DNA from: an uncultured Chloroflexia bacterium
GTDB lineage: Bacteria > Chloroflexota > Anaerolineae > CG2-30-64-16
Reading direction: 5' to 3'
Length of the DNA: 64,000 nt
Assembly (NCBI GenBank): GCA_963774265.1
Contig: CAVZDU010000005.1
Coordinates: 384,001-448,000 of the forward strand
Of the stretch, positions 11,063 to 59,427 are shown piece after piece. Under the pieces are notes generated by a model that was not told the origin of the DNA, did no database searches, and saw nothing but the letters and a program-made list of their open reading frames with translations. The translations under genes were made by a program, and so were the position numbers. Position 1 is the stretch's first letter. Each line of letters opens with the position of its first letter.

Positions 11063-11868
11063 ATGCAGAAGATGGAAATGGCACTCGAGACTCGTAATGT
11101 AACAAAGACCTACGGCACGGGCGCGACCGCGACGAAGGCAGTGGATAACGTATCGGTCAGCGTGCGTGCTGGTGAGTTCGTGGCGCTGGTCGGGCCGAGC
11201 GGCTCAGGCAAGACGACACTGCTGGCCATGCTGGCCGGGCTGCTGCGCCCCACCGACGGCGAGATCATCATCGCCGACGCGGACCTGGGGCGGATGAAGG
11301 ATAATCCTCGCACGGCCTTCCGCCGGGAGAAGATCGGCTTCACTTTCCAGGCCAACAACCTGGTGCCCTACCTGACCGCCTGGAAAACGTCGAGCTGATG
11401 CTGCGGCTGAACGGCCGGCTGAATCGGGAAGGCAAGGCCCGCGCTAAGGACCTGCTCGTCCGGCTGGGGCTGGGCGACCGGTTGAACAACCTGCCGCGGC
11501 AGCTTTCCGGCGGCCAGCAGCAGCGTGTGGCCATCGCCCGTGCGCTGATCCATGAGCCCGCCGTCGTGCTGGCCGACGAGCCGACGGCCAGCCTGGACAC
11601 CGAGCGGGCGTTCCAGGTGGTCGAGACTTTTGCGACGATGATCCGCGAGCAGAACCGCGCGGGCATCATGGTCACGCACGATCTGCGCATGGTGCAGTAC
11701 GTGGACCGGGTGCTCCAGATGCGCGACGGCAAGCTCGCACGCGAGATTACTGACCCGGCCGACATCCTGGCCCTGGCCGATGCGGGCGTCCATGATGCAC
11801 CGGTTGCAGTCACTCTGCCCGAAGCTATGCCGGCTTTCGCACCTGTACCCGTACCTGTCTACGGCTAA
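11063..11868 (+). CDS. ABC transporter ATP-binding protein (LolD/MacB-like), 1-nt frameshift near 11380
   Basis: Walker [27 protein letters not shown]; one added C restores LTALENVELM. Confidence 0.88.
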
Positions 11869-20028: not shown

Positions 20029-23000
20029 ATGCCTGACGACCACTACGACCTCGATCTGACTCCCGGCGACATCGGTCGGTTAGAGAACCGTGAGGCGCTG
20101 ATCGCGCTCTTTGCGCGACTGGGCTACAACGTCGACGATGCGGCGAAGACGCCGCACAGCAGCCTGGGCCTGGACGCGGAGGACCTGAAGCACCAGGTGC
20201 ACTCCATCTACCGCCTCGCCGCGGACCCGGAGGATGGCGAGATTGTCATCTACCTCTACGAAGTGCGCTCAGTCACCAAAGCGCTCATCGACGCGGTCAG
20301 CCGGCCGTTCGGCAGCCGGGGCGGCTCACCCCTGCTGGTTCTGACCCACGATTACGAGCAGCTCGATTTCGTCCTGGTGCTGCCCCAGAAACGGACCCCG
20401 GGCCGCGATGGCGTGGTGCGCTATGGCGTTGAAACCCGGAGCATCAAGGTCGACCGGCGAAAGGTGTCGACCGTGCACCTGCGCGTGCTCAAACGGTTTA
20501 CCTTTACCGAGGCCGAAAGCGACCAGCAGTGGGACAAGCTCGTCGCCGCGTTCACCTACGCGGCCACCGCGGGCGAGTTCTTCAACAACCGTGCGCTCTT
20601 CTCCGATTACTACCTGACCCACCGCCTGACCGACCGGCAACTGACCCCCGAATGGCAGGAGGAAGACCAGGCGCGCTACCTCGCGCGAGCGGCCAGCCGG
20701 CTGCTGGTCAACGCGCGGGTCGCGACTGGCCAACCAGCCTCAGTCCGTCATCCGGCGTGAGCTTTTCGAGCCGCTCTTCAAGGATCTACGCCTGAAGCCG
20801 GAGGCACCGCCCAGGAACGCCGCGACGGCCAGGCAGGCTCAGCCCGACTACCTGCTCTTCGACCCCGATGACCGGACCGCCGCGCTGGCGGCCGCGCTCA
20901 TCTATCCCTGGGATCGCAACCTCGACGACGCGGACCGCCAGCGCGACCCCGAGCGGGGGGACGAGATCCCCGGCGCGCGTGTGGTCAGCGTGCTGGCCGA
21001 AGGGGGCGTCAACTGGGCGATCGTCACCAACGGCAAGGCCTGGCGGCTCTATGCGGCCAACGCGGACAACCGCGCGACCAACTACTACGAGATCGACCTG
21101 GAAGAAGCGTTGGCCTCGGTCGACCACCTGACCGCTACCAAATACTGGTGGCTCTTCTTCCGCCGCGAGGCGTTCACCGGGTTTCTCGACCGCATGCTGA
21201 AGGGGTCGGCCGAGTACGCCAAGGGGCTACGCGAGCGCTTGAAGGACCGCGTCTTCGAGGATGTCTTTGCGGCCTTCGCCGAGGGGTTCATCCTGTACGG
21301 CCGCGCGCGGGGCGCCGAACCATCCCTCGATGACGCGTTCGGCGGCACGATGACCTTCCTGTACCGGCTGATGTTCATCCTTTATGCGGAGAGCCTGGGG
21401 CTGCTGCCCGAATATGAAGCGCGCGGCTACGGCGAAAAGAGCATGGGGCGGCTCAAGCATGAAATCGCCCTCGCGGGGGGCGATGTGGAGGATGAAGCGC
21501 CTGCCCGGCTGGCCGCGGCGTATCGCGCCGACAACACGGATCTGTACCGGCGGCTCAGCGAGCTCTTCACCGCGGTCGACCAGGGCGACGCGGGCCTCAA
21601 CCTGCCGCGTTACAACGGCGGCCTGTTCAGCAAGACCACGCCTGCGGGCCAGTTCCTGGCGAGCCACGCCATCCCGGACCGCTACCTGGCGCTCGGTCTC
21701 GACCGGCTGTGCCGCGACCTGGACGACAAGACCCACGCCCTGGTCATGGTCGACTACAAGACGCTGGGCGTGCGCGAGCTCGGCTCGATCTACGAAGGGC
21801 TGCTCGAATTCAAGCTGCGAATCGCGGGGGAGCCGCTCGCGGTCGTGCGCGAGGGCGGCAATGAGGTTTACTTGCCGCTCGAAAAGGCCAAGGGCAAACG
21901 CGTGCGTCGCGGCGAAGGCTATCGGCGACGTCTACCTCGAGAACGATAAGCGGGAGCGCAAGGCCAGCGGCTCGTATTACACGCCCGACTACATCGTCAA
22001 GTACATCGTGGCGCACACCGTGGGCCCGGTGCTCCAACGCAAGTTCGAGGGGTTGCGCCCGCAGCTCGACGACGCACAGCGGAAGTATCGCAATCATAAG
22101 AAGAATGTGCTCGCGAGCGGCAATCTGCAGCCGCCTGAGCTCTTCTGGAAGAATGACGCCATGGCCCGGCTGGCGGACGACTGCCTGGACATCAAGGTGC
22201 TCGATCCGGCCATGGGCAGCGGCCATTTCCTCGTCGAGGCGGTCGATTTCGTCTCCAACCAACTGATCGACTTCCTGAACGGCTGGAGCGAGAACCCGGT
22301 GTGGGGGCTGCTGGCCCGCACGCAGGAGGACATCCTGGCCGACATGGTGCGCCAGGAGGTGACCATCGATCGGCGCAAGCTGACGCGCGTCAACCTGCTC
22401 AAGCGCGCGGTGCTCAAGCGCGGCATCTACGGCGTCGACCTGAACGAGATGGCCGTGGAGCTGGCCAAGCTGTCGCTGTGGCTGGATGCGTTCACGCTGG
22501 GCGCTCCGCTGAGCTTTTTGGATCACCACCTGAAGAACGGCAACAGCCTGATCGGCGTGCGTATCAAAGAGGTGGAGGACGCGCTCGAGGCGGCCGAAGC
22601 CGAGCAGTTGGGGCTGCTGGAGCAGAGCCAATTCGCGGGCGTGATGCTGGCGACCGACCTGATGCGGCAGGTGGGCTATCTCAGCGATAACACGGTGAGT
22701 CAGTTGGAAGAGAGCCGGCGGCAGTATGAGCAGGCCGTCGCCCACCTTGCGCCTTACAAACGCATGTTGGACGTGTACACGTCGCGCTGGTTCGGCAACC
22801 ACCCGAATCTGGGGAAGGCCAAGGCGTTCGACCCGACGATCGCGTTCCTGAAACGTGACGACGCGGTTGACTGGTTGAACGATCCGACGAAAGCCTTCCC
22901 CGAGAGAGACTACATGGACGCGCGGGGCGTGGCAGCGACCGCGCTGGCCGCGGCAAAGGGAAAACGCTTCTTTCATTGGGAGCTGGAGTTCCCGGAGGTG

Positions 23001-25188
23001 TTTTTCGCCGCGAGCACGCCAGGCGGGCAGGACATCGATCTACGCGAGGGCGCGGGGTTCGACGCGGTGGTGGGGAATCCGCCGTATGCAGAGCTTTCGG
23101 AACTCGATGCTGGTCGTTCTTTACCTGAGAAGGATTTTTTTAACTCGTACCCAGGATTCGGATCCGCACAAGAATCCGAAGGCCGACTCAACTGGTATCA
23201 CTACTTCATGGTTCAAGGCCTCAATCTGGCAAGACATGCTGGCCTATGCAGCTTCATTGTACCGATGTCTTGGATGGGGGACAGCTTCACCGTCGGTGTG
23301 CGAAGATGGATGCTCCGCGAGCACACACCGCTTCGCGTTGAAGCCTTTCCTCAGAAGGACGATCCGAGAGATCGAGTCTTTTATGAAGCCAAACTGCCTA
23401 CAAGTATCTTCGTCTCGCAAAAGGGCATCGTGCAGGCAGAGCTGCGGGTTCGAGTGCACCCAGGACGTTTGATTCTTCCGAGTCCACATTATGAAGCTAA
23501 TCTCAGTGCAATCATGGCTTTAAGCCCCAATTCCTGGCTGATCCCTCTCGTTACTCCGGACGAATGGCGAATATTATCCCGGCTTGCTCAGGATTCGAAC
23601 CTTGGTCGCCTTGACGCCCACGGAGCAGTCCCCACATCCGGGGAAATCATCTTTAATGCCGCCACACGTCCGTACATGACCTCCGACAGTCACTATGATC
23701 TGATCTTGAGGGGTAGTCACGTCCAACGCTACGAACTCGTTGAAAAGGCGAAGCAAGGGGTTCCTGAATACTTGAACACGGCCGCATACCTGGCGCAAGC
23801 AGGTACAGACTCTAAGGCTTTTGCTTTCAAACACCCTCGAATCGTGTATCAAGAAGGATCTGCTATCGATGCCTGGCGACGTGTAGTGCCCACATATCTC
23901 CCAGCGGGGGCGATTTGCGGTCACAAAATCTGCTACTTCACCGATTACAAGATAGACATGTTCGCCTTCTTGGCGATTTATGCCAGCAACTTCGTGAATT
24001 GGCTCGTTGAGAAACTGAGCGTAACGAACAGTCTTCCGGCTTACCTCATCGGCAGTCTCCCCTTTCCGATTCTCAACAAGCCGGTGAATGAAGAGCACGA
24101 AGAACTATCACAGGAAAACTTGGCTCGTTTGGCTCACCGAATGCTCGACCTCAACAAACGCCGCGCCGTCGAGACCAAGCGTTTCCTCACCTGGCTCGAA
24201 TCGCGCCTCCACATCAAACTGGACAAGGACGGCGCGACCGGCATCGACTCACTGGCGGGCAAGTCCATCCTCCAGAACTACCTGGGCGATTACCAGAAGG
24301 GCGAGCGGGAGCGGACGTGGGATGAGTTCTACGGCCGCCTCTTTCAGAATCGCCGGCGCTTCGGCGTGGTCCTGGCGGACGTCAGGGGCGAGATCGAAGC
24401 TGAGTACGAGAAGTCGCTGGCGGTGCTGCAGCCGATCAAGCAGCAGCTTGCGGCCACCGACAACCTGATCGACAAGATCGTCTATCGGCTCTACGGCCTG
24501 ACCGAGGAGGAGATCGCGATCATCGAGGGGCCCGCGTTCGAGCAGGCACAGGCCGACGCGAAGGCGGCGGTGGTCGGGGACAAAGAGCTGCAGGCCGACC
24601 CGGACAAGGCCCTTGCAGAGATGGCCGACCGGGTGCGCGCTGGCGGGCGAGCGGGTGGTCAATCAGCTCTCGCTGGCAGAAGAGCGCAGGCTGCTCGATG
24701 CGGCGCTGCCCGGGTGGAACCTCTTTCCCGACGACGTCGCCAAGGCGCTGCTCACGGGCGAATATTCGATCCGCAGCATGCCCGATGGCCTGGACTTCTC
24801 CGGGACGGTTGTGGAGTACGGCAAGGCAGTGGAGGCCGCGATCTATCATCGCATCTTCCTGCGCTTTCGCGCGGAGGCCGGGTGCACCGCGGATGATGTC
24901 CAAAACGAAGAGGTGTTCAAGCCGTTCATGGGGAACCCGGATAAGAAGATCACGCTCGGCAGCTTCACCATGCTGTTCAGTTCCAAGGAGAAGGCGTTGC
25001 ACGCGTTCGTCCGTCGCATCTACCCGCGCGTGGATGAAGTGATCTACGGGAAGGCGGGGGTGCTCAAGCTGTTGAGCGATCAGGCGAATATCGATCTGCG
25101 CAACGCGGCCGCGCACGACAAGGTGCTCGACCGCGAGGCGGCGAAAGCCGTGCGTGCGTGGGCGTTTGCGGTGCTGCGGAATCTGTAG
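20029..25188 (+). CDS. Type IIG/Eco57I-like N6-adenine DNA methyltransferase with TRD and C-terminal HEPN-like domain; split by several frameshifts
   Basis: FLYRLMFILYAE, YNGGLF, LGSIYEGLL, SGSYYTP, motif I VLDPAMGSGHFL, motif IV VVGNPPY; tail DFSGTVVEYGKAVE..RNAAAH; frame breaks near 20720-20840, 21910 and 24640; TATAAT at 19984. Confidence 0.82.
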
Positions 25189-25200
25189 AGGTGCGGACTT

Positions 25201-25232
25201 AGGTGCCCGGCACTTCGAAGTGCCGGGCACCT
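25201..25232. repeat. Perfect 32-bp palindromic REP-like element
   Basis: AGGTGCCCGGCACTTC-GAAGTGCCGGGCACCT. Confidence 0.75.
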
Positions 25233-25256
25233 GGCGGGGCACCTGACCGAAGCGCA

Positions 25257-25307
25257 TTGACACGCCTGGCCGGCAGTGCTACAATGTGACCACATGAAGT
25301 GGTCACA
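25257..25307 (+). promoter_or_regulatory. TA promoter with autoregulatory operator
   Basis: TTGACA-N17-TACAAT; inverted repeat TGTGACCAC-atgaa-GTGGTCACA at 25285-25307. Confidence 0.8.
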
Positions 25308-25324
25308 AAGGGACGAGGTGTATC

Positions 25325-25591
25325 ATGCCGGAGATTGGCATTCGTGAATTGAAGAGCCAGGCATCAGAAATCGTGCGCGCGGTGCGCGAAGGCCGGGTGG
25401 AGTATGTGATCACCCACCGCGGCCGGCCGGTTGCGATGATCGTGCCGTTCGAGGAAGCATCGGAAGAGACAATGCGGTCTCATGAGGCGTTTTGGGACGA
25501 GATGGACGCGTTGGCGGATGAGTTGGCCGCAACATGGGACGCTGAGAAGAGCCCGTTGGAATACTTCTTTGAGCAGAGGCGCCAGTCGTGA
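25325..25591 (+). CDS. Phd/YefM family antitoxin
   Basis: IGIRELK..ASEIVRAV..ITHRGRPVA; acidic C-terminus. Confidence 0.9.
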   Translation: MPEIGIRELKSQASEIVRAVREGRVEYVITHRGRPVAMIVPFEEASEETMRSHEAFWDEMDALADELAATWDAEKSPLEYFFEQRRQS

Positions 25592-26035
25592 TTCCTTCGA
25601 TCATCGTACTCGATCCCAGTGTCCTCGTTGCCTCGGTCAGCCAGATGGAAGATGGGCACCAGAGTGCGAGAGTACTTATGCGCCAACTGGCAGCAAGCCC
25701 GATGCAGATCTTGATGCCAGTGATTGGATTGCCGGAGCTAGCCTCCGGTCTTGGTCGCGGCCGGCGGTCGCAACCTACCGCGTTCAAGTTGCTCTCGCGT
25801 TTCAGGGAAACACCCAACCTGCACTTGCGGCCTGTGCTGGAGTCGCTGGCTGATGTCGCTGCAGAGTTGGCGCTGAGCCACAGAATCAAAGGTTGCGACG
25901 CTATTTACGTGGCATTAGCGCGCGAAATGCAGATTCCACTCATCACGCTCGATCAAGAGCAAGCGAGGCCGCGCGCCTGTGGAGGTTATAGTCCTGACGC
26001 CCGAACAGGCCCTGGCGGAGTGGTTAGCAACGTGA
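25588..26035 (+). CDS. vapC: VapC/PIN-domain toxin (1-nt frameshift near 25968)
   Basis: IVLDPSVLV, E in LPELAS, DAIYVALA, LITLD; shifted frame gives APVEVIVLTPEQALAEWLAT* ending in a GTGA overlap with the next gene. Confidence 0.82.
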
Positions 26036-29000
26036 AGCGCATCCCTTACGTCATCGACAACATCTCGGTCACGCTGGCCGACGTGCTGAACCAGCTTATT
26101 GCGGAGCAGGGCGGCCGGCAGTTAGATATCGCCACGGCCTACTTCAGCGTGCGCGGGTGGGCGCTGCTGCGGGATAATCTGCGGTCGGTGCGCCATTTCC
26201 GCCTGCTGCTGGGCGATCAACCTGCGGCGGGCGACGACATCGGATTGGGACCCGACTCCGCCGCATATCTCCGTCACGAGTTGAACGCGGAGCCGCTGAG
26301 CGAGGCGACGCGGCGGCTGGTGGAGGAGTTGGTGCGCTTCCTGCACCGCGAGAGTGTGGAGGTGCGGCTGTATTTGGGGTATGAGCCCGGGGAAAACGAG
26401 CGGCGGCGTTTCCTGCACGCCAAGTGCTACCTGCTGTACGGCGATACACATGGCCGGACGTCGCTCATCACGCACCTGAACCCCCTGATCGGCATCGTGG
26501 GGTCGAGCAATTTCACCGCGCCCGGCCTCGTTTCCAACCGCGAGCTCAACCTGGTGCACAAGACGCTGCTCGCGCCCGACGAGGTGGAGGACCCGCTGGC
26601 GGCCGCGGCCGTGACTCGCCAGGGCCAGCACCGCGTCGATGGACACGTGCTGCCCGAAAACCGGCAACTGATGAAGAGCGAAGTCGGTGCGCGCGCCATC
26701 CTCGATCTGGTCGAGTGGTACGACGACCAGTGGCGGCTGGCGGAGGATTTCAAGGATCGGCTGATCGAGATGCTGGAGAACTCGAAGTTCGGCGGCCGGG
26801 AGTACACCCCGTACGAGATCTACATGAAGGCGCTCTTCGAGTACTTCCGCGATGACCTGGAAGGCGAGGCGCCGCAGGCCGCGACCCGTTCGGCCGTGGA
26901 GCTGTCGGAGTTTCAGGACGATGCGGTCAAGAAGGCGCGGCGCATCCTGGCGCGCTACGATGGCGTCCTGGTCGCGGACTCGGTGGGGCTGGGCAAGACG
27001 TGGATCGGCAAGAAGCTGCTGGAGGATTTCGCCTATCATCAGCGGCAGAAGGCGCTCGTCATCTGCCCCGCGTCACTGCGTCTCATGTGGGAGCACGAGC
27101 TGCAGTCGGCCACGATCTCGGCAGCCGTTCTCTCGCAGGAAGAGCTCGGCCAGGAGGACTTCGATCTGCGGCGGCTGGCCGACGTGGATGTCGTGCTGGT
27201 CGACGAGGCGCACAACTTCCGAAACCGGCGCACCGCGCGCTATGCAGCCCTTGAGCAGTTGCTGGCCCTCAACGGCCGCCGGGGGCGGAGCGGGGGCCGT
27301 AAGAAGCTGATCCTGCTGACTGCCACGCCGATCAACAACAACATCTTCGACCTCTACAACCAGATCAACCTGTTTGCAGGCAACGACCGGACCTACTTCG
27401 CGAGCGCGGGCATCGGCGATCTGTACAAGTATTTCCTGGCCGCCCGGCGCGATTCGATCGAGCAGGGCAGCGTGCGCATCTTCAACCTGCTCGAAGAAGT
27501 CGTCGTCCGCCGCACGCGCCAGTTCATCCGCAAGGCCTATCCCGAGGCGACCATCGGCGGCAAGCGCATCCACTGGCCCGAGCGGCGGCTGCGCACGGTA
27601 CGCTACGACCTGGAGGCGACTTACGAGGGGCTCTATCGGGAGGTCGTGCCGCGATATCGAGGCGCTGCACCTGCCGCACTACAACCTGGAGTCGTACAAG
27701 GCGGATCAGCAGAAACAGGATGACTTCGAGCTGGGTCGGCAGGAGGCGCTGGTCGGCATCTTCAAGAGCCGGTTCCTAAAGCGACTCGAGTCGAGCATCG
27801 ACGCGTTTCGCATCTCGATCCGTCGCGCGCTGGAGTTCGTCAAGACGTTTGACGAATACGTGCAGGAAGGCGTTATCCTGGACGCCGCCTCGTTCCAGGC
27901 CGCCATGCGGTTGGTCGCTGCAGATGAGGAAGACGCTGATGGCGGCTCGAACGGCCACGTGCCCGGCTCGCAGGCCGAGCGGATCGATGAAGTCGCCGAA
28001 GCGCGGGCCATCATCGAGAGCCTCCCGCGGCTCGACCCCACGAAATACGACCGCCGGCAGCTGCACCGCGACCTGACCAGCGACATCGAGACGCTCGACC
28101 GACATCTGGTACAAGGTCCGCGACATCACCTACGTAGCAAGACGACAAGCTGGCCGCGTTCAAGGCGCTGCTCCAGGCGGAGCTGCGCAGGGCAAGAAAG
28201 TGCTGGTCTTCACCTACTACAAGGACACGGCGCGTTATCTCTATCGCGCGCTGACCGACGGCGGAGAGGCGCGGCTGGCGCGAGGCCGCGGGCGATCCGC
28301 ACGATCCGCCGCATCGACAGCGGCGCCGATCCGACGGGACCGGGTGCGGCTGATCGAGGCGTTCGCGCCACGTGCCAACAACCGGCCGGAGCTCGCGGGC
28401 AGCGACCGGGAGATCGACATCCTGATCTCGACCGACGTGCTCTCCGAAGGCCAGAACCTGCAGGACTGCGGCTACCTGCTCAACTACGACCTGCACTGGA
28501 ACCCGACGCGCATGGTGCAGCGCGCCGGGCCGCATCGATCGCCTCGGGCCCGAATTCGACACGCTCTCGATCTACAACATGTTCCCCGAGGAGGGGCTGG
28601 AGGACCTGCTCGGTCTCGTCGCGCAGCCTGACGGCCAAGATCGACGTGATCAACCAGACCGGCTTCCTCGATGCCAGCGTGCTGGGCGAGGTGGTCACCC
28701 CGCGCGACTTCAACACGCTCCGCCGCATCGCGGAGGAGGACAACACGGTGATCGAGGAGCAGGAATCTTTCCTCGAGCTGGCGAGCAGCGAAGCCATGCT
28801 GGCCGAGTTGCAGCGGGTGCTGGCGACCGAGGCCGCGCGTTGGGTGACCGACCTGGACGATGGGATTCATTCAGGGCTCGCGCCGGGAAGGTGCGCGGGG
28901 TGTCTTCTTCTATTTCAAGGCCCGCCGCGGCAACGGCAGCACATCCCACTTCTGGCGTTACTACGATCTGCGGCGACGAGAGATCATCGACAACCGCTAT

Positions 29001-51392: not shown

Positions 51393-51545
51393 ATGAAGGT
51401 ACTTGTCAGCGGCGGCGCCGGCTATATCGGGAGCACGGTTGCACAGCAGTTGTTGGTGGCCCAGCCACCCCGAGCTGCGCGAGATCGTCGAGAGCGCCCG
51501 GCTGTGGCACCAGGACCATCCACACGGTTACGGAGAACCCAATGA
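51393..51545 (+). pseudogene. galE: UDP-glucose 4-epimerase remnant with large internal deletion
   Basis: MKVLVSGGAGYIGSTVAQQLL joined out of frame to PELREIVESARLWHQDHPHGY (GalE C-terminus). Confidence 0.8.
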
Positions 51546-52692
51546 CGGTTGATCGACAAGTCGTCCAGGCCTTTGAGGAGCGTTTCGGCGCGGCGCCGGC
51601 CTTTGTGGTGCGCGCGCCCGGCCGAGTCAACCTGATCGGCGAGCACACCGACTATAACGACGGGTTTGTGCTGCCACTGGCCATCGACCGGGCCGCGTGG
51701 ATCGCGCTGCGGCCCGTGCCGGGTTCGGTGGTGACCGTCCACTCCCTGGATTTCGGTGAGGTGGACACCTTCGATCTGGACCGCCTGACCCCACAACCCG
51801 GCTCGTGGGCCAATTATGTGCGCGGGGTGACCTGGGCGCTGCAGCAGCGCGGCTATACGCCGGCCGGTTGGGAGGGCGTGATGGCCGGTGATGTGCCACT
51901 GGGCGCGGGGCTCTCGTCCTCGGCCGCGCTGGAGATGGCTGTGGCGCGCGCGTTCGCGGCGGTGGCCGGCTGGCCTTGGGATGCGCCGAGCCATGGCGCT
52001 GAGCGGTCAATTGGCCGAGAATAAGTGGGTGGGTGTCAACACCGGCATCATGGACCAGATGATCTCGGCCGCGGGTGTGGCCGAACACGCGCTCCTCATC
52101 GACTGCCGTTCGCTGGACACAACGCCCATCCCGCTGCCCGCGGGCTTTGCGGTCGTTGTGCTGGATACGTCCACGCGGCGCGGGCTGGTCGGTTCGGCGT
52201 ACAACGAGCGCCGTTTGCAGTGCGAGACCGCAGCCCGCCATTTTGGGGTTAAGGCGCTGCGTGACGTCAGCGACGCGGCAACTCGAGGCGGCGAGATCCG
52301 AGCTCGATCCCCTGATCTACCGCCGCGCCCGGCATGTCGTCACTGAGAACGACCGGGTGTTACAGGCGTGCGATGCGATGCGGGCCGGCGATGCCCACGC
52401 AGCGGGCCGGCTGTTGGACGCCAGCCACGTCAGCATGCGCGACGATTTCCAGATTTCCAACCGCGAATTGGATATCTTCGTCGAGATCGCGGCGGCCCAC
52501 CCGGCGTGCGTAGGCGCACGCATGACCGGCGGCGGGTTTGGCGGGTGCGCGGTGGCCCTGGTTGGGGATGCGGGTATTCCGGGGTTCGTCAAGAGCGTGG
52601 CTGCCGAGTACACAGTTCGTACCGGCCTGTCGCCGCGCGTCTATGTTTGCCGCGCGACTAATGGCGCGGAGGCTGTGGCCTGCGCTCCTTAA
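51542..52692 (+). CDS. galK: Galactokinase, two frameshifts (near 51990 and 52278)
   Basis: [44 protein letters not shown]. Confidence 0.92.
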
Positions 52693-54012: not shown

Positions 54013-55038
54013 TCAGTCCGCGGTCACGGGCAGCGGGATGGTCCAGCTTGCCCCAAGGATCGGGCGGAGGCCGCGGACTTCGAGCCGGGCCTGGCTCGCG
54101 CCGCCGGATTTCCCGAACCAACCGGGATAGGGCCGGTAGATGAGTATGATCTCGCGCACGCGGTCGGGCGCCAAGAGTTCACCGCGGGATGCGCAGCAGA
54201 AGTAGACCAGGTCGCCTGCTCGACCCTGGGTATCGACGAGCTGAAAGAAGCGTTGGTCCAGGTCGAGGGCGATTGGCTGGTTGCCGGTGTTCCTTATGGC
54301 GAAGGTGAAGCTCAAGGCCGGCGTGGCGCCGTCCGTCGCGACGATCTCGCCGTACTCGAAGCGCGTCAGGCGCAGAAAATCCGTGATCGTCTCGGATGCC
54401 AGGATCCCTGGCTCGTAACGATACTCGGTCGGCGTCAGGTATTCCGGGTCGACGAACACGTAGTTCGAGACGAAGGCCACTGCGGGAAAGGGGGTTGGTC
54501 GGGCCGGCGTCCAGGTTGGCGGCGGAATGGTGGCGGTCGCAGTTGAAGGCACGAGCGTGGCGGTGGGGGATGCGGTCGCCTCGGTGCGAGCGGTCGCGCT
54601 GGGCGAGGCTTCTGCGATCGGGCCCGGTGGGGCGGTCGCCGGGCGCAGCACCAGCACCCCAATCACCGCGAGTACCAGCACGCCGGCCGCGATCGCGAGA
54701 CGCGGCCGGGGGGTCAGCATACGCCACGGCTGTGGCTGGGCCGCGATCACAAGCTCCGGCGCGGCCACAGTACTGCCCGCATGGAATGCGGCGACTGCCG
54801 CGGCCAGCTCAGCATTGTCGCCGTAGTCTTGCTGGGTGACCGTGATGACCGCGGCCACCCGATCGCGGTTCAGCGCCTCGTTCAGCACCTGGTGCCAGAC
54901 ATCGATCGCAGGGCCGTCGAAGTCGATGAAGGCCGCATCCAGGCCGGCTCCCGCGGCCACGCGCCGAGCATCGGCCTCGCGGGTGTACAGATCGGCCAGG
55001 ACGGCCTGCAAATCATTGAGTGCCGGGTCCCAGGACAT
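54013..55038 (-). CDS. EAD1-like domain + single TM + P/T stalk + extracellular beta domain
   Basis: N-term VLADLY..AGLD..IDFDG..WHQVLNEA; TM RPRLAIAAGVLVLAVIGVLVL. Confidence 0.7.
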   Translation of the reverse strand: MSWDPALNDLQAVLADLYTREADARRVAAGAGLDAAFIDFDGPAIDVWHQVLNEALNRDRVAAVITVTQQDYGDNAELAAAVAAFHAGSTVAAPELVIAAQPQPWRMLTPRPRLAIAAGVLVLAVIGVLVLRPATAPPGPIAEASPSATARTEATASPTATLVPSTATATIPPPTWTPARPTPFPAVAFVSNYVFVDPEYLTPTEYRYEPGILASETITDFLRLTRFEYGEIVATDGATPALSFTFAIRNTGNQPIALDLDQRFFQLVDTQGRAGDLVYFCCASRGELLAPDRVREIILIYRPYPGWFGKSGGASQARLEVRGLRPILGASWTIPLPVTAD

Positions 55039-55041
55039 GGG

Positions 55042-56049
55042 CTACCGCACCCCCTTGTCCGTCAGCCCCGCGATGACCACGTTGATGTGGATCCCCTGGT
55101 TGCGCATATACTTCTGGTTCGATTCCGGTTCGACCAGCCAGCCTCCCTTGTGATGCAGCGCGACGACCCGCCAATCGGTGTCGAACACTGGCGATCCCGA
55201 CGACCCTTCCAGCGTATCTGTCATGTACTGCACGCGGCGCGCATCGGCATACGCGACCACGTTGTGCGACAACGCGATCTGCTTCGGCCCGCCGCCAGGG
55301 TGCTGGACGATAATGACTTCATCGCCTTTGCGAGGGGCGCCGTCGGGGAGCGGTGCGAGCGGCAGCACACCCCACTTCGCGGCCGGATCACCCTTCACTT
55401 TGACGACGGTCCAGTCGTCGCCGCCTTGATCGTCCGTGGGCGAGGTCGCGAATACCTGATCAGGCGCCAGCTCGTAGCGATCGATGGGTTCATCGCGGCC
55501 CTCCGGCGTTTTCTGGTAGTTGAACTCTACATAAGCGGTGGCCGCGACGTCGGACGCATTGAGCACGTGGTGGTTGGTGATCAGCAGGTTGTCCGCGATC
55601 AGGAATCCGGAGCCGCTGCTGCGGTTGGCCAGGACCACGCGAGCAACCGGCCTGGAAACCTGGTAGCCGCGGAGCAGAAATCCAATCGGCCGCAGGCTGC
55701 TGACCGCGCCCGTGATCTTCTCCAACCCGGCCGCATCCGCTGGGCCGCGCCACGCGTCCTCGGTCATCTCGGGCGTGCGAACCGCCAATAGCGCATCCTG
55801 GGCGGCTAGTTGGAGCGACTGCACCTCGGGTTTCTCCTGGCGGGCCAGGTCGATGATCGCGAGCACCTTGGCGTGGTGGTCGGCCTCGGTTAGTACGCTT
55901 TGCCAGGTGTTGACCGGCCGATCGTCCCACGCGATGTACGACGGCTCCAGCCCGACGCTGGTCAGGATGCGCTCGATATCCCGGTCGCGGTAGTACAGCC
56001 GCGCGAGCAGATCGCGCAGGTTGGCCATGGTCCGATAGTCAAGGGACAT
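55042..56049 (-). CDS. EAD1-like domain + trypsin-like serine protease
   Basis: LLARLY..GL..I..WQSVLTEA; GSGFLI..ITNHHV, DWTVV, IVQHPGG, TLEGSSGSPV (His/Asp/Ser triad). Confidence 0.88.
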   Translation of the reverse strand: MSLDYRTMANLRDLLARLYYRDRDIERILTSVGLEPSYIAWDDRPVNTWQSVLTEADHHAKVLAIIDLARQEKPEVQSLQLAAQDALLAVRTPEMTEDAWRGPADAAGLEKITGAVSSLRPIGFLLRGYQVSRPVARVVLANRSSGSGFLIADNLLITNHHVLNASDVAATAYVEFNYQKTPEGRDEPIDRYELAPDQVFATSPTDDQGGDDWTVVKVKGDPAAKWGVLPLAPLPDGAPRKGDEVIIVQHPGGGPKQIALSHNVVAYADARRVQYMTDTLEGSSGSPVFDTDWRVVALHHKGGWLVEPESNQKYMRNQGIHINVVIAGLTDKGVR

Positions 56050-56117
56050 GTTTACCTCCCGGAATCCGGCATCAGACCTGTCAGCGAGGGCGGATGGTCT
56101 TCGCACACCCTGCGCAC

Positions 56118-56190
56118 AGTGTAGCATTCCGCGCGGTTAGCGTCAATAGATTTTTGTCCCATTGACACAGGCGGCTGCAGGCCGTATTAT
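56118..56190. promoter_or_regulatory. Back-to-back divergent sigma70-like promoters
   Basis: Minus: TTGACG-N17-TACACT (56146-56118); plus: TTGACA-N17-TATTAT (56162-56190). Confidence 0.68.
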
Positions 56191-56230
56191 TAGAATTGAC
56201 CACATACGCAATCTCTCGGGGCCGATAGCT

Positions 56231-58010
56231 ATGCCTCCAGATAGCGACTTCAACCGCCGCATGCGCGAGGTCCTGGCCGGGACCTACTCACAACGCGAAA
56301 CCGCCAGGTTGCTCGCACACGATGCTGGCCTGGATCTGACCCACATCGATCTTGCCAACGCGCCGGCTGTCTTCTGGCAGGCTATCGTCGAAGAAGCTGG
56401 ACGCGGTGGGCAAGGTCGAGGCGCTTCTTGTTGAGGCATGCCGCCGTGCGCCGGCTGTCGACGAGTTTGGTGCGCTGATCGAGGAATGCCGCACCCGCCA
56501 GGCGGCCGGCTGGCAGCCGGTGACCACGACTGGCCCCGATATGTCGCCTTCCGCGCGCGCCCGATGGCGCATCTCCAGACGGAAAATCGCCAGCCTGGTT
56601 GGGCTGGCGGTCATCGTGCTGGCCGCGGCTGCAGGCCTCTACTGGTGGCGCGTGCCTGCGACGATGACGGCGTCTTTCACCGTGGCCGTAGCCGAGTTCG
56701 GGTCGCTCAATGCCGACAACCAGCACCAAAGCTCGCCCTTCGAACAGGCTGTGAGCCGCATGGTGTACGACCGGTTGCAGGCGGTGCTGCCTTCACGTCC
56801 CTCGGGGAATCCAAACCCCATCCCTGATCCCCCTGAGGTCCAGATTTGGCACGACAGCTTGGGCTGGACTCAGAAACGCACCGCCCTTGGCATTGTAGAC
56901 GGAAGTTCGTCCGAGATACGGCAGACTGCAGCCCGGAGGCTGGCTGACGCCGTCTCCGCGGACGTGGTGATCTATGGCCAACTCGATGGAGAAGGCCGCG
57001 ACGCCAAATTGTGGTTGCGCATCTACGCGCCTGAACTTGCTGACAGCCGGGAACTGTTGGGCGAACAACAACTTGGGAGGCCAATCCCGGTCACCAACCC
57101 TACGCGGCCTGAGCTCGGAGTCAGCTACGAGATTACATCACGGGTTGAGGCGCTGGTTTTCATCGTGAAAGGGCTGAACTTCGAGTTTCAGGGTCAGCCC
57201 CAGGAGGCAGTCGACCCCTACAGCCGCGCCGCGCAGGTGCCTGGCTGGCACGATGACCAGGGGAAGGAGATCGCTTATTTTTTCATCGGCCGCGCGCAGT
57301 TGAAGGCTGGCAACTACGATGGGGCGACGGAGGCCTTTGAGAAATCCCTGGAGCTCAACCCGGAGTATGCGCGGCCGCAATTAGGGTTGGGCAACGTGGC
57401 GCTGGAGCGTGCGCGTCACCTGCCGGCCGACCAGTTGGACGCGCGGCTGCGCCTGGTCGACGAGGCGATCGCGCGTTACGCCAAGGCGCTTGCGGCTGCG
57501 ACCACTTCGCCGGGCGAGGCGCTAGCGGTCAAAGCCCGGCTCGACCGCTGCACCGCGTACCAGGTGCAAGCGCAAGCAGAGATGGAGGCAGGTCATTATC
57601 CCGAGGCCGATGACGCGCTCAACCTGATGATCGAGGAGGGGCAATTGGCCCTGGCCGGGGCTGACCAGGCGAAGTCTTCACCGGGACAGATCGCGGAGCT
57701 GCGCGGCCTGGCCCATTACGACCTGGCCATTGCGTTCCACCAGAAGGGATATCTGTGGTGTGGCCAGGATCTGACCCAAAGCGCCAGCTTCTACGAGGAG
57801 GCCCGAGCGCACTTCGCCGAGTGCGCCCGGTTTGCCGACATACAACTCGGCGAGAGCCATTCCAGGTTTGTTGATGACTTCAAAGCGGACTGCTCAAACC
57901 AGGAGGCCTGCACGCAACTGTGCATGAATAAGTTGCAGGGAGGACAAAGTGCCTGTTCGGACGATGTTTGCCTCAACCGCTGCCAGGCGTTATCTGCTGG
58001 GGGTGGCTAG
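56231..58010 (+). CDS. EAD1-like domain + single TM + extracellular alpha/beta domain + TPR + Cys-rich tail (frameshift near 56410)
   Basis: VLAGTY..AGLD..IDL..FWQAIVEEA|KVEALL; TM RRKIASLVGLAVIVLAAAAGLYWW; ADVVIYGQL; TPR FEKSLELNPEYA. Confidence 0.72.
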
Positions 58011-59427
58011 CCGCGCCTGGTTCGTCGTGTTGCTGTGTCTGATGGGATATGCGGGCGGAGTCCAGGCGGCCGAGAACCCGCCAGCCGCGCCGTTTTCTTG
58101 TACGGTCAGGAACGACTTCCTGCGCGCACGCCAGGGGCCGGGCGTCAACTATCCCCTGGTGAAGATGCTGCCCGCCGGCAGCCAGGTCACAGCGGACGCC
58201 CGCAATGCAGACGCGACATGGCTACACATAACTGCCTCGAATCTGAATGCCTGGGTGATGGCCGGAGACGTGGTTTGTACGGGCCAGATTAGCAAGTTGC
58301 CACTACCAAAGCCGCCGCCATCGCCGCCGCCAAAGCTGGCTGCGCTTTCCGCACAATCCAACGGTGCACCACCGTACAAGGAGCAAGAGGCTCGTTATAC
58401 TCAGGCCAACTCGCCGGTCCAGTGGGTGATCGAGTACGACGTGGATCGGGGAGGCAGAGACTATCGCCACTTCGACTTATCGGCAGCCGTGCCGGATCTT
58501 TGTCAGCTGGCGTGCCAGCGCGAGGAGCGCTGCCAGGCCTACGTCTACGCCGAGCCCGGGCTGCGGTCGGAGCGGGCCCACTGCTGGTTGAAGGATGCGA
58601 CGCCAGCGGCGGTGGCGAGTGCGGGTTTCATCTCGGGCTTCAGGACGTTCGGCGCTTGGGAAGAAGGAATCGATCGGGCCGGCAGCGATTTTGGTTCCTG
58701 GCCAGTTGGTTCCCCACAAGAGTGCATGGACCGTTGCCGGGCAGACTCGTGCTGCGCCGCGCTGGCGTACGTGCAACCGGACACGGCAGGCGGTACGGGG
58801 ACCTGCTGGCTTAAGTGGGAGGCGCCCGTGGGTGTGCGTCGCAGCGGGATTCTTTCGGCGGTCAAGCTTTTTGGAGCTATCCGTCCGCCGGGCCCCATTC
58901 CGATTGGCGCAGCGGCCGGGTGCAGCGGCAAACTGGTCTTTCGGGACGACTTCGAACGCGGCTTGGGTTCGGCATGGGCCGCCGATCCGGCGTGGCGAGT
59001 CGAGTCCCTGTCTGGCTCGTGGGTGCTGCGGGGCCGCAATCACTTTTGGGCCACGGTGCGGGGCAGCGGTTGGGGGGACTATCAGCTCTCAACCTGGTTG
59101 CTGTTGGAGCGAGGCACGATCCATCTCAACGTCCGCAAGCAGGGCCAGGATCGCTATTTCCTTGGCTTCCAGGCAGGCAACCTCTATCTGAACCGGCAGC
59201 AAGGCTCGGCCTTCCGAGACCTGACCAGGACGAGCACGCCGTTCAAATTGGGCGAGTGGCATCTGGTGCAGATGGCGGTTCGTGGCGGGCACATCGAGGT
59301 ATTCGTGGACGGCGTTGAGCAGCTTGACTATACGGATCCAAATCCGTTGGGCATCGGCACAATCGCCTTTGAAACCATTGAGAACTCGGTGGCGCAACTC
59401 GACGATGTACAGGTTTGTGTAAGGTAA
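57949..59427 (+). CDS. Secreted protein: SH3b + two PAN/Apple domains + ConA/DUF1080-like domain
   Basis: GGAGG RBS; signal peptide ..GGVQA; LRARQGPGVNY; DRGGRDY..C..C..C..CWLK twice; FRDDFE..WHLVQM..VFVDG. Confidence 0.78.
   Translation: MPVRTMFASTAARRYLLGVASRAWFVVLLCLMGYAGGVQAAENPPAAPFSCTVRNDFLRARQGPGVNYPLVKMLPAGSQVTADARNADATWLHITASNLNAWVMAGDVVCTGQISKLPLPKPPPSPPPKLAALSAQSNGAPPYKEQEARYTQANSPVQWVIEYDVDRGGRDYRHFDLSAAVPDLCQLACQREERCQAYVYAEPGLRSERAHCWLKDATPAAVASAGFISGFRTFGAWEEGIDRAGSDFGSWPVGSPQECMDRCRADSCCAALAYVQPDTAGGTGTCWLKWEAPVGVRRSGILSAVKLFGAIRPPGPIPIGAAAGCSGKLVFRDDFERGLGSAWAADPAWRVESLSGSWVLRGRNHFWATVRGSGWGDYQLSTWLLLERGTIHLNVRKQGQDRYFLGFQAGNLYLNRQQGSAFRDLTRTSTPFKLGEWHLVQMAVRGGHIEVFVDGVEQLDYTDPNPLGIGTIAFETIENSVAQLDDVQVCVR

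Follow-up and report, generated by a model that had tools for sequence, protein, structure and literature searches.

A 64,000-nt stretch of DNA from an uncultured Chloroflexia bacterium (contig CAVZDU010000005.1, positions 384,001 to 448,000), which we call the window, carries at 54013–59427 four genes that we designate A, B, C, and D (Table 1; positions are those of the window). A shared death-domain-like module, the effector-associated domain EAD1, probably joins a cytoplasmic protease, encoded by B, to two outward-facing membrane proteins, encoded by A and C; the product of D appears to be secreted. Only 3 nt separate the stop codon of B from the start codon of A, and the start of D overlaps the 3′ end of C. 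C and D diverge from B, and the back-to-back promoters named in a preliminary description of this DNA, made from the sequence letters, were recovered as two promoter-like sites at a distance of 16 nt. The plus-strand site, for C, is of sigma-70 type and near-perfect (56162–56190, TTGACA-17-TATTAT, 11/12 consensus positions), and the minus-strand site, for B, is weaker (56146–56118, TTGACG-17-TACACT, 9/12 consensus positions). The region has 3 such sites compared to 1.2 expected from shuffles, and the plus-strand site is also kept upstream of an orthologue of C on a metagenome contig, L025. Three of the eight EAD1 copies in this 5.5-Mb genome fall within 5.4 kb, far beyond chance, which together with the back-to-back promoter-like sites suggests co-regulation.

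Table 1. Features of the EAD1 locus in window coordinates. ORF, open reading frame; TM, transmembrane segment.
Feature	Position	Strand	Description	Basis
Gene A	54013..55038	-	341 aa: EAD1, one TM, Pro/Thr/Ala-rich linker, beta-sandwich ectodomain	ORF, Pfam, hydropathy, model
Ectodomain of A	54016..54486	-	Ig-like beta-sandwich, conserved adjacent Cys-Cys pair	model, Foldseek, VIA-align, alignment
TM of A	54640..54699	-	about residues 114-133, Arg on N-terminal side	hydropathy scan
EAD1 of A	54787..55023	-	residues 6-84, 30.6 bits	Pfam; five-helix model
Gene B	55042..56049	-	335 aa from ATG at 56049 (ORF open from 56127): EAD1 + cytoplasmic trypsin-like serine protease, no TM	
Trypsin_2 of B	55156..55614	-	89.3 bits; His161, Asp212, Ser284	Pfam, orthologue alignment
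EAD1 of B	55795..56043	-	31.3 bits	Pfam
Divergent promoter-like sites	56118..56190	both		consensus scan
Gene C	56231..58010	+	EAD1, TM, alpha/beta domain, TPR-like solenoid, Cys-rich tail; +1 frameshift inside	
EAD1 of C	56255..56489	+	spans frameshift; 40.3 bits read through	
Frameshift site of C	56408..56411	+	GGG run 56408-56410; GGGC taken as one step brings frame back	
TM of C	56583..56654	+	basic stretch SARARWRISRRK before TM	hydropathy scan, helix in model
Alpha/beta domain of C, after TM	56676..57041	+	conserved FxVAVAEFG start	model, alignment
TPR-like helical solenoid and Cys-rich tail of C	57126..57959	+	Pfam TPR_2 27.7-27.9 bits	Pfam, model, Foldseek
Gene D	57949/57964..59427	+	secreted: signal-like N-terminus, SH3b-like, two PAN, LamG/3-keto-disaccharide-hydrolase-like domain	

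Comparison with the Pfam EAD1 profile (PF19955, cut-off 24.2 bits) supports the N-termini of A, B, and C as true EAD1 domains, with C read through its frameshift. The preliminary description had recognized the shared N-terminal domain of the three genes correctly but overlooked that no single open frame spans C as assembled. The 59 N-terminal codons of its EAD1 fall in one frame (56231–56434), and everything else, including the TM segment, the TPR-like part, and the Cys-rich tail, falls in the +1 frame, which is open between 56352 and 58010. The N-terminal fragment alone scored 22.5 bits, below the cut-off, and covered profile positions 9–60 of 90; with one G of the GGG run skipped, coverage extended to positions 9–89 of 90, at the score given in Table 1, and C would be a protein of 590 aa. 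Intact orthologues of C (P0002 and P0003; 594 aa, 73–74% identical) carry EAD1, TM, and TPR in one chain, and one of them sits on L025 in the same gene order as here. The genome assembly (84% complete, 10 contigs) is rich in indels. In the window, galK (51542–52692) is split over three reading frames, its first and last pieces matching residues 17–149 and 259–389 of a solved 392-residue galactokinase, which points to assembly indel errors or gene decay; an ABC-transporter ATPase gene (11063–11868) is cut at 11398 into two adjoining ORFs that match Pfam ABC_tran positions 2–78 and 80–137. Elsewhere in the genome, rpoD, a pyruvate formate-lyase-like gene, and a TIR-nSTAND1 gene are also split. 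Because intact orthologues exist and galK, rpoD, and other genes are broken as well, a homopolymer indel error of the assembly is the likeliest cause of the frameshift in C. Four public sequencing runs contained at most 0.07 of the sampled words, and their contigs do not reach 56329–56465; no RNA run with the region was listed.

We modelled the EAD1 head of A, which formed a five-helix bundle with a local confidence score (pLDDT) of about 90, and compared the model with about 48,000 representative solved chains using VIA-align. The best match of the whole A model was a CARD (9frr_A; Z 8.8, root-mean-square deviation 2.6, 82/91 residues aligned). Residues 2–94 matched the Fas/FADD death domain complex (Z 7.2), the bacterial death-like structure 8ss1 (Z 7.1), the Apaf-1 CARD (6.8), the FADD death domain (6.7), the RIP2 and NLRC4 CARDs (6.4), and a viral FLIP death effector domain (6.2). 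These matches are suggestive of a death/CARD-like fold for the EAD1 head, with the caveat that VIA-align Z values below about 13 for helical bundles may mean just a common arrangement. A complex prediction pairing the EAD1 domains of B and A (residues 1–95 of each, with alignments) scored 0.00, which falls below the mark and is evidence neither way.

B has no hydrophobic segment in a hydropathy scan, and its Trypsin_2 domain keeps the catalytic triad (H161, D212, S284), which is invariant in 7/7 orthologues, in agreement with the intact cytoplasmic trypsin first described. PADLOC reported a weak match of the B protease to RT-Protease_XI (34.9 bits) and no match for A, C, D, or three other EAD1 proteins. 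An invariant aspartate, D278 (window 55213–55215), lies six residues before the catalytic serine, in what we take to be the register of trypsin Asp189. This register and the basic juxtamembrane stretches of A and C hint that B may prefer Arg/Lys sites, a suggestion we offer as pure inference. Among 40 closer relatives of this genome, B-type proteases adjoin EAD1-EAD2 adaptors (G024, G010, and G031) or an EAD1-coiled-coil protein (G031), the protease beside the latter being 68% identical to B. The examined flanks of two EAD1-trypsin operons (L046 and L052) contained no NTPase.

A and C each have one TM-like segment ~25–45 residues past EAD1, with K/R enriched on its N-terminal side. This bias predicts that EAD1 lies inside the cell and the C-terminal part outside, the arrangement proposed originally, and the models likewise bore out the claim that the two ectodomains differ, with a beta-sandwich in A and an alpha/beta domain, TPR-like helices, and a Cys-rich tail in C. 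The A ectodomain follows a Pro/Thr/Ala-rich linker and was modelled with pLDDT about 80 in most 10-residue blocks. Its top Foldseek matches were 4eae and 4r4g (YcdA), with E down to 2e-5, and VIA-align gave Z 7.3–7.6 to 4r4g, 4les, 3cfu (YjhA), and 4eae; the domain thus resembles secreted Gram-positive lipoproteins of unknown function. With E limits of 0.1 for full-length A and 1 for its C-terminal 228 residues, EAD1 was the sole Pfam family reported. The ectodomain has four clear homologues (P0014–P0017, 53–62% identity) and a weaker fifth, and two of these (P0016 and P0017) are full-length EAD1-TM-beta proteins with the architecture of A.

A scan of genome contigs with an alignment of A found one locus, L034, on a 10.9-kb contig of a Chloroflexota metagenome-assembled genome. 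There, the A-type gene is last in a same-strand array, after an unknown protein, an EAD1-Trypsin_2 protein, and an EAD1 gene with a 409-aa unknown ORF. The adjacency of B- and A-type genes therefore recurs once, without a C-type gene, and the contig contained no NTPase. This genome lacks a homologue of the unknown protein upstream of the EAD1-trypsin gene (344–395 aa in L034 and G002), which was dropped as a core part. As a separate observation, L034 also holds (679–2694) a SufB-like ORF with an apparent intein-like insertion, noted on reading the translation by eye.

The C ectodomain was modelled with pLDDT 79.6 and a predicted template-modelling score of 0.76, pLDDT exceeding 90 over much of the TPR-like solenoid, and its tail contains 8 Cys in the last 90 residues. 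Foldseek matched the model to generic TPR proteins, the CadC periplasmic domain appearing first at rank 49 with low TM-scores, and an Atlas language-model look-alike search with the alpha/beta domain gave CsgG/LpoB/TolB-N-type clusters at 0.87, which is below the 0.9 threshold for a lead and is taken as a lead only. D, the secreted SH3/PAN protein of the preliminary description, has a signal-like N-terminus and a PAN_4 match at 87.8 bits, and its SH3_3 (24.4 bits) and LamG/3-keto-disaccharide-hydrolase-like matches are below or near cut-off. We recognized no catalytic domain in the ectodomain proteins A, C, and D. A metagenome scan with C found one locus, L025, in which the C–D pair is kept and is followed, as here, by methyltransferase and malic-enzyme genes. 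Secreted proteins are encoded just downstream of several C-type genes, with SH3_3 matches of 16–18 bits, below cut-off, in 2/5, and BLASTP of D against one of them (L036dn) gave E 1.4e-4 in a tiny database; a conserved secreted partner for C-type sensors is a lead only.

A large protein collection yielded 12 homologues (E≤0.001) of the C module, which comprises the TM, the alpha/beta domain, and the TPR, and C-like modules were found in 6/401 sampled genomes of the phylum, this genome counted. Across these proteins, the module is preceded by different heads: EAD1 in C itself, P0002, and P0003; CHAT caspase-like proteases in P0005, P0007, P0009, P0010, L030, L031, L032, and L033; nSTAND1 NTPases in L028 and L029; and short helical domains in P0006 and P0008. 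The CHAT-headed P0005 is 42% identical to C over 93% of the length of C, and two CHAT-headed paralogues are encoded in this genome (L032, G000:C2:128789-131458; L033, G000:C3:350728-353376), each followed by a gene for a secreted-looking protein. In 14/15 aligned C-family proteins, exactly one TM segment separates the head from the module. For Kaur et al., a constant module with a switching adaptor, protease, or STAND NTPase head is the defining pattern of conflict systems (PMC8195603). The exchange of EAD1, CHAT, and nSTAND1 heads argues that the C module passes information to a protease-type output. The exchange further marks the TM, alpha/beta domain, and TPR as a sensor cassette that can be swapped among EAD1, CHAT, and nSTAND1 heads and that often precedes a secreted-protein gene, and the head-swapped cassettes constitute a natural construct set for testing signal passage across the membrane.

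Pairwise identities among the EAD1 domains of the locus were 27% (A–B), 28% (A–C), and 24% (B–C), whereas the EAD1 of C was 53–54% identical to those of an SduA_C (Shedu-type) nuclease (C5:523728) and a TM-FGE-sulfatase protein (C2:832041) encoded elsewhere in the genome. Adjacent EADs tend to be each other's closest relatives (PMC7159879), and A, B, and C depart from this tendency. Given these identities, a genome-wide network or two abutting units fits at least as well as a closed three-gene module. In the two-unit explanation, B–A (protease and membrane partner) and C–D (sensor and secreted partner) are independent, the EAD1 of C pairs with other effectors such as the EAD1-Shedu-type nuclease, and there is no three-EAD1 module as such. 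Each pair recurs at one further locus (B–A on L034, without an NTPase or a C-type gene, and C–D on L025). The 258 nt that precede the C orthologue on L025 show no recognisable B start, so the locus may be two such units. B could lie beyond these 258 nt on L025, however, and the crowding of EAD1 genes and the close spacing of the promoter-like sites described above suggest co-regulation. Homotypic death-fold contacts, in addition, need no high identity. We regard two independent units as improbable.

Eight EAD1 copies were found in the genome, the same eight by the Pfam model and by a hidden Markov model built from 16 EAD1 sequences; a marginal further match (C3:69203-70582, E 0.031) was judged by eye to be an RNase II/R-type protein and was dropped. 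Four of the eight are EAD1-TM-ectodomain proteins (A, C, a 350-aa protein at C7:506877, and the EAD1-TM-FGE-sulfatase at C2:832041), two are cytoplasmic effectors (B and the EAD1-SduA_C protein, G000:C5:523728-524675, L011 8311–9258, encoded 84 kb downstream, with an EAD1 53% identical to that of C), and two are adaptors joining EAD1 to a second small domain, EADx. EADx gives just weak, sub-threshold Pfam matches to EAD2/EAD8 and may be an undescribed adaptor subtype. Further carriers of EADx are a second trypsin, a metallopeptidase-like ORF, and a coiled-coil gene that immediately follows a TIR-nSTAND1-WD40 gene. In one array (G000:C6:242639-246525, L010 9001–12887), two EAD1-EADx adaptors stand with a metallopeptidase-like ORF ending in EADx and an EADx-trypsin.

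The claim that no MoxR, STAND, or GTPase core is present held up: no NTPase gene was found within the locus or among the scanned ORFs of the 64-kb window, and none of the eight EAD1 proteins of this 84%-complete genome is fused to an NTPase or to a VMAP/iSTAND/Ubl/GAP1/STAND core. Alternatively, A, B, and C may be outlying parts of an EAD network centred on an NTPase. A STAND or other NTPase encoded elsewhere would then be the switch, the membrane proteins being extra sensors or anchors that localize the system and B being one of several recruitable effectors. According to Kaur, Burroughs, Iyer, and Aravind (eLife 2020, PMC7159879), the presence of dispersed EAD copies correlates with a core component that bears the cognate EAD, and in this genome the EAD1-EADx adaptors, the EADx-trypsin, the metallopeptidase-like ORF, and the coiled-coil-EADx gene beside TIR-nSTAND1-WD40 could supply the connection. 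The EADx matches are weak, however, and the tie of EADx to nSTAND1 is one of adjacency alone. No EAD1 protein of this genome is NTPase-fused by either profile, and the scanned window ORFs, the L034 contig, and the flanks of L046 and L052 contained no NTPase.

A wider survey bears on the same alternative. A profile search of 1.84 billion representatives returned 2752 EAD1 proteins at E≤0.001, from which we took the best 150; 73 shorter than 230 aa were left out of the architecture count, and 77 were counted (76 Pfam-scanned proteins and P0002). Among these, 12/77 begin with EAD1 and continue through one TM into a stretch of 150 residues or more, and the C-terminal parts of the 12 comprise FGE-sulfatase (3), PASTA (1), TPR (2), and no Pfam family (6). 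STAND or VMAP domains occur in 15/76 of the Pfam-scanned proteins from the best 150 of 2752, including two EAD1-nSTAND1-TM-sensor fusions (P0068 and P0104), and a locus in a relative (L043, G031:C26, 4923–15315) encodes EAD1-TM-FGE-sulfatase, EAD1-TIR-FGE-sulfatase, a reverse transcriptase (RVT_1), and EAD1-NACHT-FGE-sulfatase together, which looks like a diversity-generating-retroelement sensor locus. Membrane-anchored EAD1 proteins are a real and recurrent class, found both with and without an NTPase nearby. We consider an NTPase-centred network somewhat unlikely for this locus.

The reading that we favour, at a probability of about 0.45, is that the locus is a membrane-anchored branch of an EAD1 adaptor network in which an outside signal clusters EAD1 heads and these engage the protease. 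A and C would each carry an EAD1 head in the cytoplasm and, outside the cell, a binding domain that is non-enzymatic; the co-encoded secreted SH3b/PAN/LamG protein D would probably be the working partner of C. An outside ligand, such as a phage, a foreign cell surface, or envelope damage, would alter the oligomeric state of the membrane proteins, and the clustered EAD1 heads would draw in and concentrate B, and perhaps also the EAD1-nuclease whose gene lies 84 kb away. Activated by proximity, B might then cut cellular or membrane-proximal targets, leading to cell suicide or a signalling response. The elements that we infer are contact between EAD1 heads, the way the signal runs, operation without an NTPase, and the nature of the ligand and substrates. 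A death-receptor-like mechanism of this kind is plausible but unproven; in its favour stand the exchange of heads for CHAT or nSTAND1, the death-fold prediction, the membrane topology, and the recurrence of B- and A-type genes at a second locus.

Several observations weigh against a membrane-anchored branch of this kind. The EAD1 domains of A, B, and C are poorly alike, and that of C groups with other paralogues. In 40 relatives, A had no full-length match, its EAD1 part or low-complexity linker alone being matched; with the C module in so few sampled genomes, the components are rare, and the evidence from conservation is thin, at one extra locus per pair, with no recognisable B start in the short sequence upstream of C in L025. 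Gene C is frameshifted as assembled, and neither a substrate of the protease nor an effector (a gasdermin, for example) is evident in the locus. With the genome 84% complete, an NTPase bearing EAD1 may be absent from the assembly, the EAD1-EADx adaptors and the EADx gene beside TIR-nSTAND1-WD40 make an indirect NTPase link possible, and elsewhere EAD1, nSTAND1, and TM-sensor parts are fused in single proteins or, in G031, EAD1-TM-FGE-sulfatase adjoins EAD1-NACHT.

The locus lies among housekeeping genes (gal genes, an MFS transporter, and malic enzyme), with no obvious defence island, and the ectodomains are generic binding folds, both of which would suit a role outside immunity, in cell-envelope or cell–cell signalling of a filamentous bacterium in which the recruited protease performs regulated proteolysis. 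HetF, a CHAT protease of cyanobacterial division and differentiation, is a precedent (PMC9457339, PMC8406250). The partners of EAD1 here and in relatives are conflict effectors, however, including the SduA_C nuclease, TIR, SIR2, FGE-sulfatase sensors, and a diversity-generating-retroelement reverse transcriptase; the heads that replace EAD1 on the C module are CHAT and nSTAND1, and the B protease weakly matches a PADLOC defence protease model. We judge such a role very improbable. As a side observation on the window, at 21384–28631 an Eco57I-type restriction-modification methylase (1170 aa) precedes a PIN-PLD-SNF2-type protein and a helicase C-terminal fragment, forming a defence-like gene pair ~25 kb from the EAD1 locus.

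Extended beyond this locus, the favoured reading would mean that bacteria have transmembrane "death receptors" whose ectodomains, with secreted SH3b/PAN/lectin-type co-receptors, sense an outside threat and whose EAD1 heads activate an EAD1-protease without an NTPase switch, a generalization that we consider fairly unlikely. To our knowledge, the death-fold/CARD or EAD-type bacterial systems studied experimentally all sense inside the cell via STAND or MoxR NTPases. If the generalization were true, the EAD1-TM-ectodomain class would be a widespread, unrecognised outside-in arm of prokaryotic immunity, parallel to Fas/FADD/caspase-8. Should EAD1 heads on membrane proteins truly pass an outside signal to a protease, phage or foreign cells could be detected at the surface before or without cytoplasmic cues, and the receptor/death-fold/protease logic of animal extrinsic apoptosis would have a prokaryotic counterpart.

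In animal death receptors (Fas/TNFR1, FADD, and caspase-8), an ectodomain is linked through one TM to a cytoplasmic death-fold, and an adaptor-bearing protease is activated by induced proximity. Compared to these, the analogy is one of logic only: the ectodomains and proteases are non-homologous (serine versus cysteine), and the locus has no separate adaptor. A transmembrane anti-sigma factor of Myxococcus xanthus, DdvA, which has a periplasmic TPR-CHAT part and controls a CBASS/CRISPR island (Sci Adv 2024, PMC11506125), is likewise single-pass with TPR in its periplasmic part, and it relays a phage-related signal with proteolysis as part of the relay. DdvA acts by releasing an ECF sigma factor and has its CHAT domain in the periplasm (PMC11506125), whereas here the cytoplasmic side carries an adaptor domain and the cytoplasmic protease is separate.

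EAD/STAND systems with FGE-sulfatase sensors, which have a C-type-lectin fold, combine a sensor with an EAD that recruits a trypsin-like protease, and some are diversified by retroelements (PMC8195603, PMC10907252); some STAND-linked lectin-fold sensors are proposed to be periplasmic (Dore et al., PNAS 2024, PMC10907252). This genome also encodes an EAD1-TM-FGE-sulfatase protein. Those FGE-sulfatase sensors come with STAND or MoxR NTPases, either as fusions or as companions (PMC8195603, PMC10907252), whereas the ectodomains of A and C have other folds and no reverse transcriptase lies nearby. In gasdermin-type systems, a CARD-like domain on a trypsin-like protease mediates protein–protein contacts and is essential for anti-phage defence (Wein et al., 2023, PMC10312443). 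B carries an N-terminal EAD1, a candidate death-fold-like domain, on a cytoplasmic trypsin-like protease; the fold was modelled for the EAD1 of A, and the comparison with the CARD-like domain is one of fold (A model against the 8ss1 structure deposited by Wein et al., at the Z value given above). The partner in those systems is a cytoplasmic STAND ATPase and the cleaved effector a gasdermin or phospholipase-nuclease (PMC10312443), whereas the candidate partners here are membrane proteins, and neither a STAND ATPase sensor gene nor a cleavable effector gene was found in the locus or the scanned window ORFs.

With EAD-coupled conflict systems (PMC7159879), the locus shares the same EAD1 on adjacent genes, one copy fused to a trypsin-like peptidase, a predicted homotypic adaptor role, a lineage with filamentous members, and several paralogues with varied partners. 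Those systems put one EAD on a VMAP/iSTAND/Ubl/GAP1/STAND core (PMC7159879), whereas the partners here are single-pass membrane proteins with ectodomains, and the neighbouring EAD1 domains have their nearest kin elsewhere in the case of C. Membrane-proximal systems and TM-anchored "effector" domains are treated in the main texts of Kaur et al. 2020 and 2021 (PMC7159879, PMC8195603), which appear not to describe an NTPase-free EAD1-TM receptor with an EAD1-protease, although their supplementary tables may list EAD1+TM proteins; our literature search also found no paper on EAD1-TM receptor and EAD1-protease modules, although supplements may hold such architectures. In the two-gene EACC1 membrane system of Kaur et al. 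2020, an EACC1 single-TM domain stands next to a caspase-type gene; the Pfam scan of A described above reported EAD1 only, and no caspase gene is adjacent here. Because the locus has EAD1 family members and EAD coupling, but differs from the published systems in the apparent lack of an EAD-bearing NTPase-type core and in the relatedness of adjacent copies, it is a new membrane-anchored variant of the known EAD/CARD-protease conflict systems.

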